From the sequence record MH791409.1: a stretch of DNA of 64,000 nt; one strand, given 5' to 3'. Positions 3,799-63,350 of the stretch are shown piece by piece. The translations under genes and the position numbers were made by a program. Each line of letters starts with the position of its first letter. The first letter of the stretch is position 1. This stretch comes from Escherichia phage EcWhh-1. The notes under the pieces were generated by a model that worked only from the letters and a program-made list of their open reading frames with translations, was not told where the DNA came from and did not search any database.

Positions 3799-4908
<1,110 letters not shown>

Positions 4909-5765: not shown

Positions 5766-6161
5766 TTAGGCCTTAAAAGTTTTTTGCAAAAGTTCAATAA
5801 TTTGGTCGACGTTCTGTTCAGTGACAATGCAATGGATTTGGGTCACACCGGTCTTAGTAACAGGTTTGTCAACTTCATCTTCGTCATATTCACGGAAGCA
5901 ATAGAACTCATCTTCATGCAATTCAAAATATTCCTCTAGTGTTCCGTCCGAACTAAAAATCTTGCCATTAGCACATTTGATTTTAGTTACAAATTTATCC
6001 CCATCTGTGGTCATTGTATCCTTTACTTCAAACCACCCACCGTTTTCTTGGATAATATCGACCATATCATTATTATTGATAGGGGTGATATTAATAAAAG
6101 CTTTGATACACTCAGGGCGAAGTTCGTATTTTTTACCAATTTTCATTTTTTTAAATTCCAA
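5766..6161 (-). CDS. hypothetical protein, paralogue of 6151..6516
   Basis: 131-aa ORF; shares motifs with the neighbour (EEYFELHEDEFYCF vs DEYFELGEWEFCHF; TQIHCIVTEQN vs TQTIHVQVNHKN). Confidence 0.55.
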   Translation of the reverse strand: MEFKKMKIGKKYELRPECIKAFINITPINNNDMVDIIQENGGWFEVKDTMTTDGDKFVTKIKCANGKIFSSDGTLEEYFELHEDEFYCFREYDEDEVDKPVTKTGVTQIHCIVTEQNVDQIIELLQKTFKA

Positions 6162-6516
6162 AGGTAGCTTTAATCAAGGCAACAACTTCTGCCGCATTTT
6201 TGTGGTTTACCTGTACATGGATAGTTTGGGTATCAACGGCAGGAGCATCGCCATCAACTTCCAGGAAGTGACAGAATTCCCATTCACCGAGTTCAAAGTA
6301 CTCATCAGAATCACCCATACTATTCAGGATGGTGCCATCTTTCATTTCAACTTTTTCAACAAAATAATCACCTTCAATATAACGCATATCCAAGACTTTG
6401 AAGGAATTGCCATGTTGTTCCATCAACCTGACCATGCACGAATTATCATCAGGACTAAAAGCGATGAATTGTTTTTTAGCAGCAGGGTCTAATACGTAAA
6501 ATTTACCAATTTCCAT
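6151..6516 (-). CDS. hypothetical protein, paralogue of 5766..6161
   Basis: 121-aa ORF; tandem duplicate of the downstream gene; RBS GAGGAAA before the ATG. Confidence 0.55.
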   Translation of the reverse strand: MEIGKFYVLDPAAKKQFIAFSPDDNSCMVRLMEQHGNSFKVLDMRYIEGDYFVEKVEMKDGTILNSMGDSDEYFELGEWEFCHFLEVDGDAPAVDTQTIHVQVNHKNAAEVVALIKATFGI

Positions 6517-6626: not shown

Positions 6627-7532
6627 TTATAGACCAGCTAACAGGTCGTCCAGACCATCGTCATCAGAAGGACTTACTGATGGTTCAGGAGTAGTGGAAC
6701 GGGCCGGTGTAGACGGTTTGGAATCATATGCATCAAGGTCTGCACTGAATGCGTCCAGGTCATCACCAATCTTATCAGCAGCTGCAGAAGCTTTAGCGGC
6801 AGCACCACCAAGAGCAGCAGTACCAACAACTTTCTTAAACTTGGCTTCGTTAGTTTCAAAGGATTTGAACTCGAGCAGTTTAGAAAGGTCGTGCATTTCT
6901 TCCATCAATTTAGCTTGGTAAGCTTCATCATTGATGTTAGGAATTTCAGACTGACCCATGAATTTGGAATCGTCGTAGTTTTTGAAGTCGCCAACTTTCT
7001 TAGATTTCAGTACGAAGTTAGCACCATCAAACGGACATGTTACGTCAACCGGCACTTCACCGATATCAGTATCAACTTCAACCATCTGGTTGATTTTATC
7101 CATAATTTTCTGACCGAAACGGAATTTAAACACTTTACCTTCGTTAGCAGGCACTGCACTATCCTTAATAACAAGGATGTTAGCCCAGAAGGAAGTTTTA
7201 CGTTTCATCAGTTTGTATTCGGCGTTATTAGTATTATACGTATCGTTCTGGTTCATGTATTTACATACAGGACAAGAATCGAAATCGCCGTGAGTAGACG
7301 TACAGTTTTCAATGTACCATTGACCATTTTTCTTAAAGCCGTGGTTAACGAGCTTAACGAATGGAGATGGATTTTCTTCGTTTTTCGAAGGTAGGAAACG
7401 AATTACCGCAGTACCAACACCATTGTCATCTTTCAATTTCCATTCAGCTTTATCATCGGAAGAGAAAGAAGAACCACCTTTCATTGCAGACAGTTGAGCA
7501 GCCAGTTGGGAAGGGTCTTTACGTTTGAACAT
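6627..7532 (-). CDS. 32: single-stranded DNA-binding protein gp32
   Basis: 301-aa [17 protein letters not shown]...[11 protein letters not shown]...CPVC zinc site, acidic C-terminus; closely matches recalled T4 gp32. Confidence 0.96.
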
Positions 7533-7600
7533 ATTATTTACCTTAGCAGATTTTAGCAGTTGTATTTTATTAACAGTTTTTAACAGATTGAGTTAGTATA
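7533..7600 (-). promoter_or_regulatory. gene 32 5' leader; candidate autoregulatory translational operator
   Basis: A/U-rich leader carrying four direct heptamers CTG(T/C)TAA on the minus strand immediately upstream of the gene 32 start. Confidence 0.5.
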
Positions 7601-7622
7601 TTAACACATTTGATATGAAGCA

Positions 7623-8276
7623 TTAAAACTTACAAGATTTGATAGTTTCAATGAACAATTTACGAGCTTCTAAATTATCGATTATAAGAATTTTCTTATA
7701 AGCATTTAATTTAGTCGAATACTTAGACCACACTAAATCGTTGGTCTGTTCATCATGTTTATTTATTATGTCCATAAATGAATCAAGCAAAATAAACGTT
7801 TCGAACGAAATAACATTCGATTGAAGGAGCTTAAAAATATAGCTCGAGTTAACTTTTTTATTATAATCAAAAATTTCAGAAAGCGCTTTAACTTCCACTT
7901 TCTTACTGAAATAATAGATGTTTTTGATATCGTCCTCAAAAACTTGTTTTATTCTTTTAAGTCTACCAATATATTCTCGGTAAAAGACTAAGGCGTCAGC
8001 ATCACTGATGTCGCCAATCCATGCGTCTTGGTTAGCCACCAAGTTACTCATGAAGATAAGAGCAAGCTCTTTCAAAGTGTATTTATCACTCAATTTCTCG
8101 AAGAAATATTTGTCACGACGTTTTTGGTAAGCCGTATCAGAGATTCGCATGACCCAGTTATATTTTATAACGTCGTATTTGGCGTTGAAGTGATGTTTGA
8201 GCATTAAGTATAGTGAATATACGCTCTTACCATTCACCATACGATTATTGTTTGGTGGCATGCGAATCTTAATCAT
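7623..8276 (-). CDS. 59: helicase loader gp59
   Basis: 217-aa ORF starting MIKIRMP...GKSVYSLYLMLKHHFNAKYDVIKYNW, matching recalled T4 gp59. Confidence 0.93.
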   Translation of the reverse strand: MIKIRMPPNNNRMVNGKSVYSLYLMLKHHFNAKYDVIKYNWVMRISDTAYQKRRDKYFFEKLSDKYTLKELALIFMSNLVANQDAWIGDISDADALVFYREYIGRLKRIKQVFEDDIKNIYYFSKKVEVKALSEIFDYNKKVNSSYIFKLLQSNVISFETFILLDSFMDIINKHDEQTNDLVWSKYSTKLNAYKKILIIDNLEARKLFIETIKSCKF

Positions 8277-8835: not shown

Positions 8836-9783
8836 TTAATAAAAATCAGCTACTGTAGCAGTTAGTTTAGACAAACCCGATTTAACGAAATAAGGATAAA
8901 CTTTAGATTTCGAAGGTTTGTTATACGTATTATATCTTTCAGTAATTAAAGCAACAATATCATCTGGAATAAAGTCCATATCAATTAAGATTTGGTTTTC
9001 ACAGAAACGTTCATATTGTTCCTCAGTAAGAAGTGTTTTAATTATATCATGGTCATAATAATTCAGAGCAATTGCTTCAAGTTCCTTAGCACGAGTGCTA
9101 GGAGTACGTTCACCTTCAACCATTGTCAACCAATAATCACCACGAACTTTAATACTTGCAACGTTATCCTTGCGGTCACCTTTAATAACCTTAGTCACAC
9201 AATCAAGCAGAGCATCACCAGATTTTGTTTTGACGAATTTTTTCTGCATTGGAGACCATTGTTTTACACCAGGGAATTTATGAAGTTGGGTAAAGTCACC
9301 ATCAGAAGAACCAATCATAACCGGATGGCCTTTAGCCGTAAGGATACGAGTCAACACAGCAATATGGTCATCGGCCTCGATTGTATCGATATTCATAACA
9401 ATATAAGGCATATTTTGTTCCAGTTCATCCACAATAATATGCATTGCAGTGAATAAGCCTTCCCAATCAAATGGTGATTCGTCACGTGCCTTAGCACGGT
9501 TTTTCTTATAATAAGAAGAATAACGACGACGCCAATAACCTGATTTAGAGTTATCAACACAAATGATTAGTTGGTTGTAACCTTGTTTTTTAAAGTCTTT
9601 AATGTTTTTCTTGATTGAATTCAAGACGAGATGTCGAAGCATTGCTGTTGTTACTTTAGGAAATCCAGCGTTTTCACCAAATTCTTGGAAGGCTGCCGCC
9701 ATAATGATTTGGCTGAAATCCAGGAGTAAAAATCCATCTTTTTGTTGGTCTTCTTCAGGAAGTAAAAAATCTAAATCGTTCAT
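8836..9783 (-). CDS. rnh: RNase H / 5'-3' flap exonuclease
   Basis: 315-aa ORF with FEN-family motifs (ICVDNSKSGYWRR, EADDHIAV, SSDGDFTQL); matches recalled T4 Rnh. Confidence 0.94.
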   Translation of the reverse strand: MNDLDFLLPEEDQQKDGFLLLDFSQIIMAAAFQEFGENAGFPKVTTAMLRHLVLNSIKKNIKDFKKQGYNQLIICVDNSKSGYWRRRYSSYYKKNRAKARDESPFDWEGLFTAMHIIVDELEQNMPYIVMNIDTIEADDHIAVLTRILTAKGHPVMIGSSDGDFTQLHKFPGVKQWSPMQKKFVKTKSGDALLDCVTKVIKGDRKDNVASIKVRGDYWLTMVEGERTPSTRAKELEAIALNYYDHDIIKTLLTEEQYERFCENQILIDMDFIPDDIVALITERYNTYNKPSKSKVYPYFVKSGLSKLTATVADFY

Positions 9784-13870: not shown

Positions 13871-14992
13871 ATGGAAAGATTTATGGCAGAATTTGGACAA
13901 GGATATGTCCAGGTTCCTACATTATCTGAAAACAATGCTGTAAGGTATAAACTTAGTATAGCAGGTAGTTGTACTAAGTCTACCACAAAAGCATATGTTA
14001 AATTTCAAGATGGGGACTTTGGTCCCCAGAATTTTCAAAATGGACTAAACCTTATAGAAATTGATGTTAGTGCCGAACCTAAAGTGGTGGCTAACAAAAC
14101 TTATAGCTTTACAAAAGATTTTGATGTTATCTCTGAAGCTTTTATTACTTACATAAGTTCAATACCGGCCAATAGAATAGTTTGTTTAGTATCTTCCGGT
14201 AGATTAAATGCTTCGCAAAATCTTATTGATTGGTTCCGTGCAGCAGGAAGTACCGCATTTCCATCTAAATGGCTAATAGACCGCTTCGAGCCGTCTTATT
14301 CGGCCTTTTACGTGTCTGGTAGAAATACTATAGTGATGGAACATGTCCTTTATAATGACGGGGTGTTTGTTGAAGATGTTTCTACCCCGTTAGAAGTTGT
14401 TTTTGACGATATCAGTGATGTTGGCGGCACCGGGTATCCTATAAGAATAGTGGAAGATGAAAACACTTATCTAAGTAATGATGGAGAGGAAATAAAACGT
14501 TTCCCTACTGAATCTCCTACTACTCCTTGCGCCGATTATAATATGAAGCCTGGAGAATTCTTTTATCTTAAATTCCAAATGATGTGTGACCAGGAATTAA
14601 AAGATTTAGGGACCTCTCAGATGTCTGTTAGATTTTTTAATGCCTCAGGTGCTTTAACAGGGTCGGTTAATATGGAAGTTCCACCTAATGTCCCTGCTGG
14701 GTCTTGGATGACTTTTGAGCGGGTAATTGAAGTTCCTGCTAATACTGAAACATTTACATTGTATGCAAGAAAAACAGTGGCCGATGGAGTCGGTGGTGTA
14801 CGTAATGTGATGTTCGGGGAAGTATCAGAGCCAGAATCTCAACCTAAATTGGCCGAATTTGGTGTAAATGGTATTCGTATGAATTTCGGTACCGAAACAA
14901 AGAATATGGGTACTACCATAGCCCAGTTATACGATAAAACAGGTACTAAACCAGGACAGGTTTGGGTGTCTGAATTTAGAGAAAAATATTAA
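13871..14992 (+). CDS. 35: long tail fibre hinge connector gp35
   Basis: 373-aa ORF directly after gene 34 in the late operon. Confidence 0.85.
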   Translation: MERFMAEFGQGYVQVPTLSENNAVRYKLSIAGSCTKSTTKAYVKFQDGDFGPQNFQNGLNLIEIDVSAEPKVVANKTYSFTKDFDVISEAFITYISSIPANRIVCLVSSGRLNASQNLIDWFRAAGSTAFPSKWLIDRFEPSYSAFYVSGRNTIVMEHVLYNDGVFVEDVSTPLEVVFDDISDVGGTGYPIRIVEDENTYLSNDGEEIKRFPTESPTTPCADYNMKPGEFFYLKFQMMCDQELKDLGTSQMSVRFFNASGALTGSVNMEVPPNVPAGSWMTFERVIEVPANTETFTLYARKTVADGVGGVRNVMFGEVSEPESQPKLAEFGVNGIRMNFGTETKNMGTTIAQLYDKTGTKPGQVWVSEFREKY

Positions 14993-21388: not shown

Positions 21389-21885
21389 TAGTAAAGGTCC
21401 TCAGAGTAAAGTTCTTTTTCACTACCACCACGTTCAATACGAACTTGATTAGCATATGTTGCAATAATCATTGCTTCTTCGCGAGTCCAATAGTTTGAGT
21501 ATTGGTCGATAAATCCTTGGTCATCACCGCAAACATGCTCTGACACAAGTTTATCACTTACTTGGTCAAGCACTTCTGCCATATCTTTTGAATAATGACG
21601 AGCTCCTGGAATAACCAGAGTCCCACCGTCTTTTAACTTAAAGCGATTGGCTGCGCATACAATTCGACGTTGGTATTTTTCATTGTTATTCCAATGAGCA
21701 ATCTGCCAACAGATTTCAGGAACCTCTTCCAAAACATCCTCTTCCGAATATTCAGCGTAATCACCGTAGGCCTGTAATTTAGCTGCTAGACTTTTAGGAG
21801 TCTCACGAGAAAGGGCTTTATCTAATAAAGCCAATTGGGCTTTAAAAGACAATTCTTTAGCTTTTAATGGGTTCATTTGAACCAT
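21388..21885 (-). CDS. hypothetical protein
   Basis: 165-aa ORF; start overlaps the upstream ORF end. Confidence 0.5.
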
Positions 21886-24784: not shown

Positions 24785-24925
24785 TTACCATACTAGTGAA
24801 TGAATAACCATAATAACATCGGAAATAAAAAGCACAACTTGGATAAGACCGAATATTACTCCATAATACAGTGCTACCAATAAAGCAGCAAGGGCCACCG
24901 AGTAGCCCAAGATTTTCTTAATCAT
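24785..24925 (-). CDS. 46-aa hydrophobic peptide
   Basis: Translation [46 protein letters not shown]; start overlaps the stop of the upstream peptide gene. Confidence 0.5.
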   Translation of the reverse strand: MIKKILGYSVALAALLVALYYGVIFGLIQVVLFISDVIMVIHSLVW

Positions 24926-29202: not shown

Positions 29203-31413
29203 TTAAGCCGCTTCCACGGCTTTCATGAATTTAACGATTTGAGCTACAGAAGCCTCGGTAATGGATGTTCCACGACGATACATGTAGTCCGAAACTAAAT
29301 GGTAATCAGATTCAAACTGTACAGTCATTTTATCATTGTTACTTGAAGCATTATTGGTTAACGTATTGAACGTGGTGTTACAGATTTTCTTGATAACAGA
29401 AAGTTTGTCATCAGTTATATACCCATGGAAATTCATATAACGGAATATATCATAGAAATTGCTCAGACGAGTATATGCTTCAGACACCGGCTTATCACTG
29501 AAATATTTAGTCATAAAACCAAGCTCAGGGAACTTAGCAATGATTTCAAGATAATACCTTGCACGGGTATTACTACCAATATAATCATCGATATCTACAG
29601 CATCTAATGCTTCGGCATAAGCTTCTAACGTGGTTTCCATCAAGCATTCACATTGGCCCAACTTTTTAATCTTTTTGGCAATCTGAGGGCGAATGATATG
29701 GAATTCGGTAGCACCAATCAAATTAGCCATACGACACATAGTAGTGGTATTGATGTCAAAGATACCATAAGCTTCATCCATTCCCATGATATCAGAACGA
29801 CTACCAAACAATACGTACCCTGTAATTTCTTCTGCTTCTGCAGCAGTTAAGTATAAGGTCTCTTGTTGCCAACGTCCATCTTTAATGAACCAACGATAAG
29901 CACTTGGTGTTTTAGGACGAGGTTCTGATGAACGGACAGTAACCGGAATCCATGGCTTAACAATTTTATTCAGTTCAGAGACTTTATAAAAATGAATAGT
30001 ATCACCTTTAAAAAGTTCTTTAACCTTTTCAAGTTGTTGCATTTGCAGCATTGAATTTGGGTCGACAAAAATAAGGTCAGTTCCATATTTAGGAATATTG
30101 TTCTCTTTAACAATTTTCTTAGCCGAAGCACTGTTGTCCATTGCCAGAGCCCAAAGTCCTCGAACTAATGGCACACGACCCTTTTCATCATCAAAAACAA
30201 TATGGATTTCTTTATTATTAATGCCTAATAAACTACTAAGTCCTGCTACCGAAGAAGTATTACTACTTGGCTTAATTCGTTTCAAACGTGGGTCTGAAAC
30301 GATTTCGTAAACCACACCTAAATTAATAAGGTCGTTTTGAAGTGTGTAACGTTGGTATAATTTCTCATATGTCAATTTTTCTGTAGTAAACAGGCTAGTC
30401 CCACCTTTTTTGGTAAGATAGTCACGAGCACTGTAACCAAGGTTAGAAAGGTCGCGATAAACATGGCGTGGATTATCAGATTCAACCCATTCTTGTGTAT
30501 CGTTTTTAAAGACCACTGCATCCAGTGCTTCGATACGGGTTGCAATATTTTCCATCGTACGTTTATCAAGAGACAACACTTCACGAGACGGAGCAATATC
30601 CAGCGAGCCCATAGGGAACTTAATATAAACTACATCATGGCGAGTACGCATCCATGTGCCTTTATTATAAGCAGAATCCAATGGATAAACAATACCACCA
30701 TAAACTGCATAAAGTCCTGAACGTTCGAAGCTGCCATAATTTGTAGTGGTTACAGGATAGTAGTCTTCAAATTCAGGGAAATAATCAACTTCAACACCGT
30801 CAACATCACCAAGTCCAATGAACGGACGCATGATATATCGAACTTCAGTTTCAAACTTACGGAAATCTTCTTCATCGACAGGAACCGTGATTTCGATACC
30901 TGTTTTATCACCTGGCTGCATAGGTTCTACGAAAGTAGGTTTAATCTGCGGCCCATCACCATCCATATATGCCACATAACCGCGAACTTCACCATTATGC
31001 CATGAGGTAATGTTGAAAGTTTCGGTATAACTGAACGGAGATTTTGAACCAAGGCCAAAGCCACCGATGAAATCGTTAGAAGCGGTTTTGGATGATGCGA
31101 AATAAGAGTTATACAAACCGGTTTCGTTTTCATCGCCACGAATCTGGAAATCACTCATGCCTGGTCCGAAGTCACGGCACACAAAGCGAGGGTCGAGCTT
31201 ACCAGGAACCTGTACTTTCCAACGTTCTTTATTACCATTCAGAATATGAGCATCAATCATGTTGGTAATTAGTTCACGAACTACGGCACGTACCTTATTA
31301 CTATAAAGGTCTGATGAAAGAATTTTAAAGACCTTAGGCGAGGCCTGGATAGTAAATCCTGTGGACTTAGAGCCGTTGCCAATGATTTGTTCTTTTTCGG
31401 TTTCAATAATCAT
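29203..31413 (-). CDS. rIIA: rIIA protein
   Basis: 736-aa ORF immediately upstream of rIIB in the same orientation; ATPase-like N-terminal region. Confidence 0.92.
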   Translation of the reverse strand: MIIETEKEQIIGNGSKSTGFTIQASPKVFKILSSDLYSNKVRAVVRELITNMIDAHILNGNKERWKVQVPGKLDPRFVCRDFGPGMSDFQIRGDENETGLYNSYFASSKTASNDFIGGFGLGSKSPFSYTETFNITSWHNGEVRGYVAYMDGDGPQIKPTFVEPMQPGDKTGIEITVPVDEEDFRKFETEVRYIMRPFIGLGDVDGVEVDYFPEFEDYYPVTTTNYGSFERSGLYAVYGGIVYPLDSAYNKGTWMRTRHDVVYIKFPMGSLDIAPSREVLSLDKRTMENIATRIEALDAVVFKNDTQEWVESDNPRHVYRDLSNLGYSARDYLTKKGGTSLFTTEKLTYEKLYQRYTLQNDLINLGVVYEIVSDPRLKRIKPSSNTSSVAGLSSLLGINNKEIHIVFDDEKGRVPLVRGLWALAMDNSASAKKIVKENNIPKYGTDLIFVDPNSMLQMQQLEKVKELFKGDTIHFYKVSELNKIVKPWIPVTVRSSEPRPKTPSAYRWFIKDGRWQQETLYLTAAEAEEITGYVLFGSRSDIMGMDEAYGIFDINTTTMCRMANLIGATEFHIIRPQIAKKIKKLGQCECLMETTLEAYAEALDAVDIDDYIGSNTRARYYLEIIAKFPELGFMTKYFSDKPVSEAYTRLSNFYDIFRYMNFHGYITDDKLSVIKKICNTTFNTLTNNASSNNDKMTVQFESDYHLVSDYMYRRGTSITEASVAQIVKFMKAVEAA

Positions 31414-41064: not shown

Positions 41065-41133
41065 ACTTTTTTGCTTTAAATTTTCAACGGTATAATGAAT
41101 CAAGGACTTTGCCTTTCAATTAAACCGGGTGGT

Positions 41134-53598: not shown

Positions 53599-54131
53599 TT
53601 ATTCACCTTATTTTCAATATATTCGTTCAGACGTTTTAATTCTACCATATCAACATTAAGCAAATTATTATGGCCGTCATGATTTAAGATTTTAAACACG
53701 TTTTCAAAACATGTTTCGTATTGCCGGATAGTTAGGTTGAACTCATCTTTGGTTAATTTAATAAGGTCGTCTTCGAAGTCTTCGTCTAATGGATTGCGAG
53801 TTAAAATAACCTCGATAACGTTAAATTCGGATTTAAACCCTTTCCAATCTTCCAGTTCTACATAAGGGTCCATTTCACCACGAAGGAATCCTGAGTAAAC
53901 AATATTACTTGGATAACCACGGTCAAGGATATAAACGAAATTAGGGTCTAAAAACTTATACAGAGTTTCAACTAAAGCCTTATCGTTATCAGTTCCTAAT
54001 GAAATACACTTGCCATTAATCTTTTTAGGAAAATCAATAAGGCGGTATTTCTTATTGGATAACAGATTTTTAATTAAAGTGGACTTCCCGGAATTATCCG
54101 GGCCGTCTATAACAATGATTTTTGGATTCAT
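53595..54131 (-). CDS. P-loop kinase (nucleotide/nucleoside-kinase-like)
   Basis: 178-aa ORF with N-terminal Walker A IVIDGPDNSGKST. Confidence 0.65.
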   Translation of the reverse strand: MNPKIIVIDGPDNSGKSTLIKNLLSNKKYRLIDFPKKINGKCISLGTDNDKALVETLYKFLDPNFVYILDRGYPSNIVYSGFLRGEMDPYVELEDWKGFKSEFNVIEVILTRNPLDEDFEDDLIKLTKDEFNLTIRQYETCFENVFKILNHDGHNNLLNVDMVELKRLNEYIENKVNK

Positions 54132-63309: not shown

Positions 63310-63350
63310 TTAGTTGGTAAATGTATTATAAATCAATATTTTAAAGCAAT

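Follow-up and report, generated by a model that had tools for sequence, protein, structure and literature searches.

Reiterated copies of a conserved gene 32 leader motif in a Dhakavirus phage: a probable pseudoknot-less variant of the gp32 translational operator

Autoregulation of gp32, the single-stranded DNA-binding protein of T4-like phages, is a textbook case of translational feedback. T4-type operators carry at their 5' end an H-type pseudoknot of about 28 nt that nucleates gp32 binding. The T4 operator combines this pseudoknot with UUAAA/UAAA repeats, both of which are essential for repression, and the footprint of T4 gp32 on its own RNA runs from +3 to -70 (PMC535899). The RB69 leader is chemically unstructured from A(-1) to A(-45) (PMC535899, Borjac-Natour et al. 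2004), and RB69 gp32 leaves a strong footprint on it from U(-14) to G(-61) (PMC535899). Gene V protein of filamentous phages likewise is a ssDNA-binding protein that represses through an unstructured leader, that of gene II mRNA (PMC535899), although, with an unrelated protein, another gene's mRNA and a different target sequence, this is an analogy only. How gp32 discriminates its own mRNA from other single-stranded RNA is unclear, and diverse T4 relatives need study (PMC535899, PMC3014915).

Here, we describe the gene 32 leader in a 64,000-nt stretch of Escherichia phage EcWhh-1 (MH791409.1), hereafter the window. The 1.7 kb of the window that was tested is 100% identical to Enterobacteria phage vB_EcoM_IME281, whose short name, IME281, we use for the window's leader, and ~99% identical to JS98, JS10, and other Dhakavirus phages, the genus being taken from the ESCO10 record. 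According to the list of open reading frames, the minus strand carries, in order, rnh, dsbA, 33, 59, and 32. Gene 59 (7623-8276, minus strand), encoding the helicase loader, matches Pfam T4_Gp59_N and T4_Gp59_C and ends in ...KLFIETIKSCKF and a stop codon; gp33 is also Pfam-confirmed at this locus. Gene 32 (6627-7532, minus strand) encodes the presumed repressor, a gp32 of 301 aa that matches Pfam PF08804 at 1.2e-52, and is 100% identical to IME281 gene 32. The gp32 N-terminus is MFKRK, so that the cooperativity segment is kept, and the Zn site retains C77, C87, and C90, which are invariant in our gp32 alignment (A1) together with F2, R4, L10, and H64. Just downstream of gene 32 lie ORFs of 121 and 131 aa (6151-6516 and 5766-6161, both minus strand), tandem paralogues with 39% identity (E = 2e-25) and an 11-nt overlap at their ends.

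Genes 59 and 32 are separated, from the stop codon (7625-7623) of the one to the ATG (7532) of the other, by a 90-nt spacer of 76% A+T that reads, on the minus strand, TGCTTCATATCAAATGTGTTAATATACTAACTCAAT-CTGTTAA-AAA-CTGTTAA-TAAAATACAA-CTGCTAA-AAT-CTGCTAA-GGTAAATAAT-ATG and includes the elements UUAAAAA, UUAAUAAAA, CUAAAA, and CUAAGG. A Shine-Dalgarno sequence, UAAGGU, can be read at 7540-7545 (minus strand), with 8 nt between its GG and the AUG. An earlier note on this DNA had placed four direct minus-strand heptamers in the gene 32 leader, inside 7541-7600 and about 10 nt apart. All four are present: heptamers 1 and 2, both CTGTTAA, at 7580-7586 (context AAUCUGUUAAAA) and 7570-7576 (context AAACUGUUAAUAA), and heptamers 3 and 4, both CTGCTAA, at 7553-7559 (context CAACUGCUAAAA) and 7543-7549 (context AAUCUGCUAAGG), the UAA of the last overlapping the Shine-Dalgarno sequence. 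The spacing holds within each pair (10 and 10 nt, start to start) but not between the pairs, where it is 17. A fifth copy with one mismatch, GTGTTAA at 7606-7600, overlaps the predicted -10 region discussed below. CTGYTAA occurs 37 times on both strands of the window, and if these copies were placed at random, four would fall within 44 nt with a probability of about 5e-6; when the spacer itself was shuffled by mononucleotides, a heptamer family of equal size, with one mismatch allowed, arose in 28 of 2000 cases (1.4%). No second pair of units 25 nt or less apart was found elsewhere in the window, and, gene 32 apart, none of its 77 putative genes has two or more units in the 60 nt upstream.

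The unstructured, A/U-rich leader that the earlier note had supposed was borne out by structure prediction. Folding energies were -11.5 kcal/mol for the 121-nt region (z = -0.5) and -5.0 kcal/mol for 7592-7513, the leader predicted for the monocistronic mRNA (z = +0.05), no more stable than those of shuffled sequence, and the repeat block has a mean unpaired probability of 0.67. An Rfam scan of 7300-7900 returned chance-level matches only (E above 4). The pseudoknot was sought with a purpose-written H-type finder, which recovers one in T4, RB69-like phages, Escherichia phage vb_EcoM-VR5, and five further lineages, with a common architecture of a 4-5 bp stem 1, a one-A loop, and a 7-bp stem 2. 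Across nine lineages this structure is 100% paired and seven of its 11 pairs show compensatory changes, as against at most 50% pairing in slid controls. No candidate was found from -125 to -12 of the IME281 leader, even with stem 1 relaxed to 3 bp. Because the finder recovers covarying pseudoknots in the relatives and none here, the structure is real there and truly absent from IME281. The T4-style pseudoknot expected beside the repeats is therefore missing, and this leader is not simply the T4 arrangement.

What IME281 does share with the operators of T4, T2, and T6 is the gene, the position, and an unstructured A/U-rich stretch running into the Shine-Dalgarno sequence and AUG, along with a CAACUGUUAA-type unit and repeated UUAA(A)/UAA(A) elements, one of which ends each IME281 heptamer. 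T4 reads ...TCATAGCACC-AACTGTTAA-TTAAATTAAATTAAAAAGG...ATG and RB69 ...TCGTAGCAACC-AACTGTAAA-TAAATTAAATAATCTAAATAAAGG...ATG, and in each a single unit lies directly 3' of the pseudoknot (T4 ...GCACCAACTGTTAATTAAATTAAATTAAAAAGG..., RB69 ...GCAACCAACTGTAAATAAATT...). T4 thus has the nucleating H-type pseudoknot, one unit, and then three UUAAA, whereas IME281 has no pseudoknot and four CUGYUAA. T4 further differs in having segG between genes 59 and 32. Inside segG, on the minus strand of the T4 locus (L024, 3495-3513), a late promoter TATAAATA is followed 10 nt later by CAACTGCTAAA, a CUGCUAA variant of the unit ~135 nt upstream of gene 32 and upstream of the pseudoknot. RB69 resembles IME281 in its gene 59 tail and promoter-like segment; its AACUGUAAA unit, at -41 to -33 as numbered on the RB69 sequence, falls both within the segment reported as unstructured (-1 to -45) and within that protected by gp32 (PMC535899). 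The two differ in that RB69 has the late promoter TATAAATA with a pseudoknot between promoter and unit, while the IME281 promoter leads straight to the units. The likeness to the T4 and RB69 operator for which the earlier note had proposed a comparison therefore extends to the homologous unit (CAACUGUUAA/AACUGUAAA) that follows their pseudoknots, but not to the pseudoknot itself. RB49 is like IME281 in having no pseudoknot and in retaining UUAA/UUAAA units (PMC535899), but, unlike IME281, it is also without the A+U-rich sequence (PMC3014915).

We collected 80 gene 32 loci, which fall into 34 lineages at ~88% gp32 identity; these are phylogenetically non-independent, and those lacking the unit are, for the most part, the most distant ones. 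Over the 60 nt that precede gene 32, no hexamer is more strongly enriched than AACTGT, which is present in 21 of the 34 lineages compared with 2.8% of background 60-nt windows from the same gene 32 loci, and ranks above the Shine-Dalgarno hexamer AAGGTA (16 of 34). Anchored on the unit, the profile has A at -4 in 20 of 21 cases and at -1 in all 21, and the three bases after ACUGU are W, A (19/21), and A (18/21), so that conservation is limited to A-N-N-A-ACUGU-W-AA with flanks at ~0 bits. The CUGYUAA repeats pointed out by the earlier note are present in IME281, but the core conserved across phages is AACUGU. Only heptamer 2 has this full core (AAACUGUUAA) and, with it, the sense orientation, a position within ~60 nt upstream of the AUG, a single-stranded context, and the following W-A-A; heptamers 1, 3, and 4 are one-mismatch variants (AUCUGU, AACUGC, and AUCUGC). 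The unit follows pseudoknots in T4, RB69-like phages, L037, L044, L045, L054, and VR5, follows other hairpins, as ACCAACUGU, in L049, L055, and L088, and also occurs in leaders with no upstream structure. It stands in noncoding leaders in IME281, L061/L062, L054, T4, and RB69. Lineages with a pseudoknot have one unit each, except one with two, and those without have 0-4; a surplus of units where the pseudoknot is missing is a trend only (P = 0.09) and was not retained. The literature covered on gene 32 operators of T4-like phages came down to PMC535899 and PMC3014915, and in it we found no description of an AACUGU unit, which McPheeters (1988) or Shamoo (1993) may have noted. On this comparative evidence the heptamers represent additional copies of an ancient RNA motif, conserved in front of the gp32 gene in most T4-like phages, and the best explanation of the AACUGU unit is that it marks the single-stranded half of the gene 32 operator in most Tevenvirinae. 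At the start of gene 32 itself, tandem in-frame starts (ATG-TCN-ATG, giving MSMFK...) occur in L029-L032, L043, L048, L050, L052-L054, L061-L062, L090-L091, and ESCO10 (L227), and the hexamer TATGTC is enriched in 11 of the 34 lineages; IME281 has a single ATG.

Elements at the DNA level, either phased protein sites or promoter-proximal elements whose 10-bp spacing puts them on one helix face, would fit the 10-bp spacing within each pair and the position of the block immediately downstream of the predicted promoter. We regard this as barely credible, as AACTGT is strand-specific (21 of 34 lineages in sense and only one of 34 in antisense), spacings vary from 9 to 19 across phages, and the units lie downstream of the predicted transcript start and, in many phages, inside coding sequence just before the gene 32 Shine-Dalgarno sequence. 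Nor was the 10-nt periodicity retained as evidence for a structural lattice: spacings of 10 nt are the most frequent, but they are non-independent because most of them come from one shared 15-mer.

The end of gene 59 turned out to be informative about where the repeats came from. Several lineages have a gene 59 that ends 9-27 nt before the gene 32 ATG, with the tail ..(K/Q)LFI(E/K)TVKNCK(F/Y) before the stop and codons CTG-TTC ... ACT-GTn-AAA-AAC-TGT-AAA that supply three ACTGT. IME281, RB69, and other lineages whose gene 59 ends far from gene 32 have the tail ..KLFIETIKSCK(F/Y) without ACTGT, that of IME281 being RB69-like. The last 45 nt of gene 59 contain a mean of 1.36 ACTGT in abutting lineages versus 0.16 in the others (P = 0.002, the lineages not being fully independent), from which it follows that the unit tracks the gene 32 start and not the gp59 protein. 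Gene 59 overlaps the gene 32 initiation region in L033, L038, L043, and L057, where TVKNCK(F/Y) replaces TIKSCK(F/Y) and three ACTGT are found, and in L038 the Shine-Dalgarno sequence of gene 32 takes in the stop codon of gene 59 (TAT-TAA-GGTAA). The CTG Leu codon in K-L-F of these tails was considered as a mark of RNA-level selection and dropped, since 71% of all Leu codons in these lineages are CTG.

When the 181-nt junction was used as a blastn query, it split into two parts with different best matches. The gene 59 tail and promoter (7661-7598) match Mosigvirus (RB69-like) phages at 82.8%, and the repeats with the gene 32 start (7589-7504) match the Kanagawavirus gene 59/32 junction at 76-78%. 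Over its full length, the leader by itself aligns to the gene 59 tail, spacer, and Shine-Dalgarno sequence found in Enterobacter phage Q7622, Kosakonia phage 305, and L033, better than do dinucleotide shuffles (P ≤ 0.001). Heptamers 1 and 2 correspond there to ACT-GTT-AAA-AAC-TGT, heptamer 1 aligning to ACT-GTT-AAA (gp59 T-V-K) and heptamer 2 to AAC-TGT-AAA (N-C-K); heptamer 3 corresponds to the SD-proximal AACTGTAAA and is homologous to the relatives' SD-proximal AACUGUAAA unit; and heptamer 4 is an insertion relative to all three phages. Read at the sequence level, these alignments show a mosaic junction, with an RB69-like gene 59 tail and promoter fused to a Kanagawavirus-like gene 59 tail and short spacer, and show the now noncoding T-V-K-N-C codons to be the source of heptamers 1 and 2. 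Heptamer 4 looks like a local tandem duplication, of ~10 nt, of heptamer 3 (CTGCTAAAAT / CTGCTAAGGT). The idea that the repeats are a purpose-built lattice gives way to this history, in which two copies derive from the gene 59 3' end, one is the conserved SD-proximal unit, and one is a duplicate. The Kanagawavirus/Slopekvirus-type junctions (Q7622, 305, L033), whose spacer is ~25 nt long, also carry three to four ACUGU units and, like IME281, have no pseudoknot; they differ in that two to three of their units are coding (..LFIETVKNCKF and stop), whereas the four of IME281 are noncoding and include one extra duplication. The same design is found in noncoding form in the unrelated L061/L062, where a promoter-like GATATAAT is followed by CTGAATC-CTGTTAAAAACTGTAAATAA (P = 0.002). 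The leader illustrates that regulatory RNA may be recycled from the coding end of a neighboring gene when modules recombine.

The heptamers could be a neutral relic, left by the 3' end of a former gene 59 and by slippage that duplicated one copy, and tolerated as any unstructured A/U-rich leader would be and with no role for the heptamer. The alignment of heptamers 1-2 to gp59 T-V-K-N-C-K codons in Kanagawavirus-type phages, the insertion of heptamer 4, the loss of the UAA of heptamer 2 in ESCO10, the tracing of the commonest spacing to one shared 15-mer, and the standing of CTG as the major Leu codon are all compatible with this explanation. We nevertheless think it unlikely. The unit is kept in 21 of 34 lineages amid flanks of ~0 bits and persists in several independent noncoding contexts (L061/L062, L054, T4, RB69, VR5). 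The IME281 units, all CUGYUAA, are more uniform than their presumed source sequence, and the true gene 59 tails of IME281 and RB69 have no ACTGT, while as many as three are present in tails that overlap the initiation region of gene 32.

The T4 middle-promoter consensus is (a/t)(a/t)(a/t)TGCTTtA, 12±1 bp away from TAtaaT and often accompanied by TGn (PMC2988021). TAA-TGCTTCA-N12-(TGt)TAATAT at 7625-7598 fits this consensus. A predicted MotA box, TGCTTCA, lies at 7616-7622 (minus strand), reading TAATGCTTCA with the preceding TAA stop codon, and a predicted extended -10, TGtTAATAT, at 7598-7606 (minus strand), with TAATAT at 7603-7598. TGCTTNA-N11-13-TANNNT matches the window 11 times against 3.06 expected, and nine of the 11 matches, including that at 7622-7598, are on the minus, gene-rich strand. 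The others on that strand are at 2535-2559, 4029-4053, 8929-8953, 21548-21572, 24863-24887, 29327-29350, 53639-53662, and 63325-63348, and those on the plus strand are at 14650-14673 and 41072-41096. Both box and -10 are kept in IME341 and QL01, the spacer between them varying. We predict that 7622-7598 is a MotA middle promoter, which would put the gene 32 transcript start near 7591 (7589-7593), ~5 nt before heptamer 1; read-through transcripts from upstream would have additional 5' sequence. A generic sigma-70 and terminator scan of the minus strand gave nothing relevant. The exact late promoter TATAAATA was not found on the minus strand from gene 32 to rnh, where one-mismatch sites occur only inside gene 59, for example AATAAATA at 7767-7760.

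Our main reading, at a probability of roughly 60%, is that the IME281 leader is a pseudoknot-less, unit-reiterated variant of the autogenous gp32 translational operator. Since the heptamers are copies of a conserved gene 32 motif, the phage probably represses its own gp32 synthesis through a T4-type operator without the pseudoknot. A monocistronic mRNA would start at ~7591 from the MotA-dependent middle promoter (7622-7598), with an unstructured, A/U-rich leader of ~58 nt holding little beyond the four units and then the Shine-Dalgarno sequence overlapping heptamer 4. Once free gp32 exceeds the available ssDNA, it would coat the leader cooperatively, with about eight monomers at ~7 nt each, covering the Shine-Dalgarno sequence (7545-7540) and AUG and so blocking 30S binding. 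In place of the missing pseudoknot, either the units themselves or the free 5' end would have to nucleate binding, and the reiterated units may stand in for the pseudoknot as nucleation site. Against the operator reading are the absence from IME281 of the pseudoknot that the literature finds essential for T4 repression, the degenerate heptamer 2 of ESCO10, and the 9-10 nt spacing of heptamers 3 and 4. The promoter and the transcript start are inferred, as are binding and repression by gp32 and any part that the unit's sequence may play, and the evolutionary description is on much firmer ground than the operator reading. The earlier operator proposal was broadly right about the unstructured leader and the homologous unit and incomplete in that it did not foresee the missing pseudoknot, the derivation from gene 59, or the AACUGU core. 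If it acts as supposed, the IME281 leader is a natural minimal operator, with no pseudoknot and reiterated units running into the Shine-Dalgarno sequence.

Lattice binding by gp32 is generally regarded as sequence-independent, and therefore the identity of the heptamers may not matter. More tentatively, and with the odds in our judgment against it, AACUGU(W)AA could be the sequence by which gp32 specifically recognizes its own mRNA or nucleates on it. If so, the pseudoknot would be an accessory that presents the unit, phages without it would compensate by reiteration (four units here), and an abutting gene 59 would have had its last codons and residues shaped accordingly (T-V-K-N-C, not T-I-K-S-C).

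The leader could also serve translation or message stability rather than repression, its A/U-rich units acting in ribosome loading (S1, a standby site) or in stabilizing gene 32 mRNA. gp32 is made in large amounts and the leader is unstructured right up to the Shine-Dalgarno sequence, and gene 32 mRNA, whose stability is raised by translation, is the most stable T4 message (PMC3014915). A sharp, strand-specific ACUGU core is not expected of generic A/U-rich S1 binding, and the cluster is confined to gene 32 among the 77 putative genes; as the main explanation we find this role quite improbable, while noting that it is compatible with operator function. Another RNA-binding regulator or a nuclease, namely RegA or, for read-through transcripts, RNase E acting on a processing signal, is a very improbable reader of the units. 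The 57 nt before the gene 32 AUG do hold seven UAA triplets that RegA might bind, but the CUG part of the unit would be left unexplained, and to our knowledge gene 32 has not been reported as a RegA target in T4. RNase E prefers A/U-rich RAUUW-type sites, which the unit does not resemble. UAA triplets were obtained in vitro by SELEX with RB69 RegA (cited in PMC3014915), and T4 relatives have kept the RNase E processing that takes place upstream of gene 32, although T4 cleavage is at -71, upstream of the pseudoknot and outside the unit segment (PMC3014915).

Within Dhakavirus the promoter spacer varies, and the box, -10, and units are kept. Heptamer 2 is degenerate in ESCO10 (CTGTGTA, with ACUGU retained), and heptamers 3 and 4 are 9 nt apart in IME341 and QL01 as against 10 nt in IME281. 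VR5 (L029 = L005) belongs to the same genus and has a 96% identical gp32, and a homing endonuclease gene separates its genes 59 and 32. The VR5 leader has a covarying, T4-like pseudoknot (ACCT-A-GTTATCA-AGGT-AAATG-TGATAAC) ~75 nt upstream of gene 32, followed by ACCAACTGTTAA and one unit only, and it seems that the mobile element carries the gene 32 leader along with it. Together with the AACUGU unit, the IME281/VR5 pair offers a direct test of what carries specificity, be it the unit, the pseudoknot, or the absence of structure.

A scan of IMG/VR for three-copy heptamers gave at least 120 unrelated contigs among the matches listed, about the chance expectation for a collection of that size. 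L113, L115, L126, L130, L144, L151, L154, L164, and L184, IMG/VR contigs of which several come from giant-virus MAGs, each have two adjacent matching blocks, with regular 54-nt offsets in L115, L130, and L144, and are probably tandem repeats unrelated to gene 32. Among the gene 32 loci, L068 has neither pseudoknot nor ACUGU but carries, from -45 to -8, three related units ~10 nt apart (AACUUUCAAA / AUCUUUUAAA / ACUUCCAAAGG), and the distant L079 and L082 have AACUUAAU / AACCUUAAUU / AACUAAAC. These units suggest a looser A-A-C-U...A-A theme.
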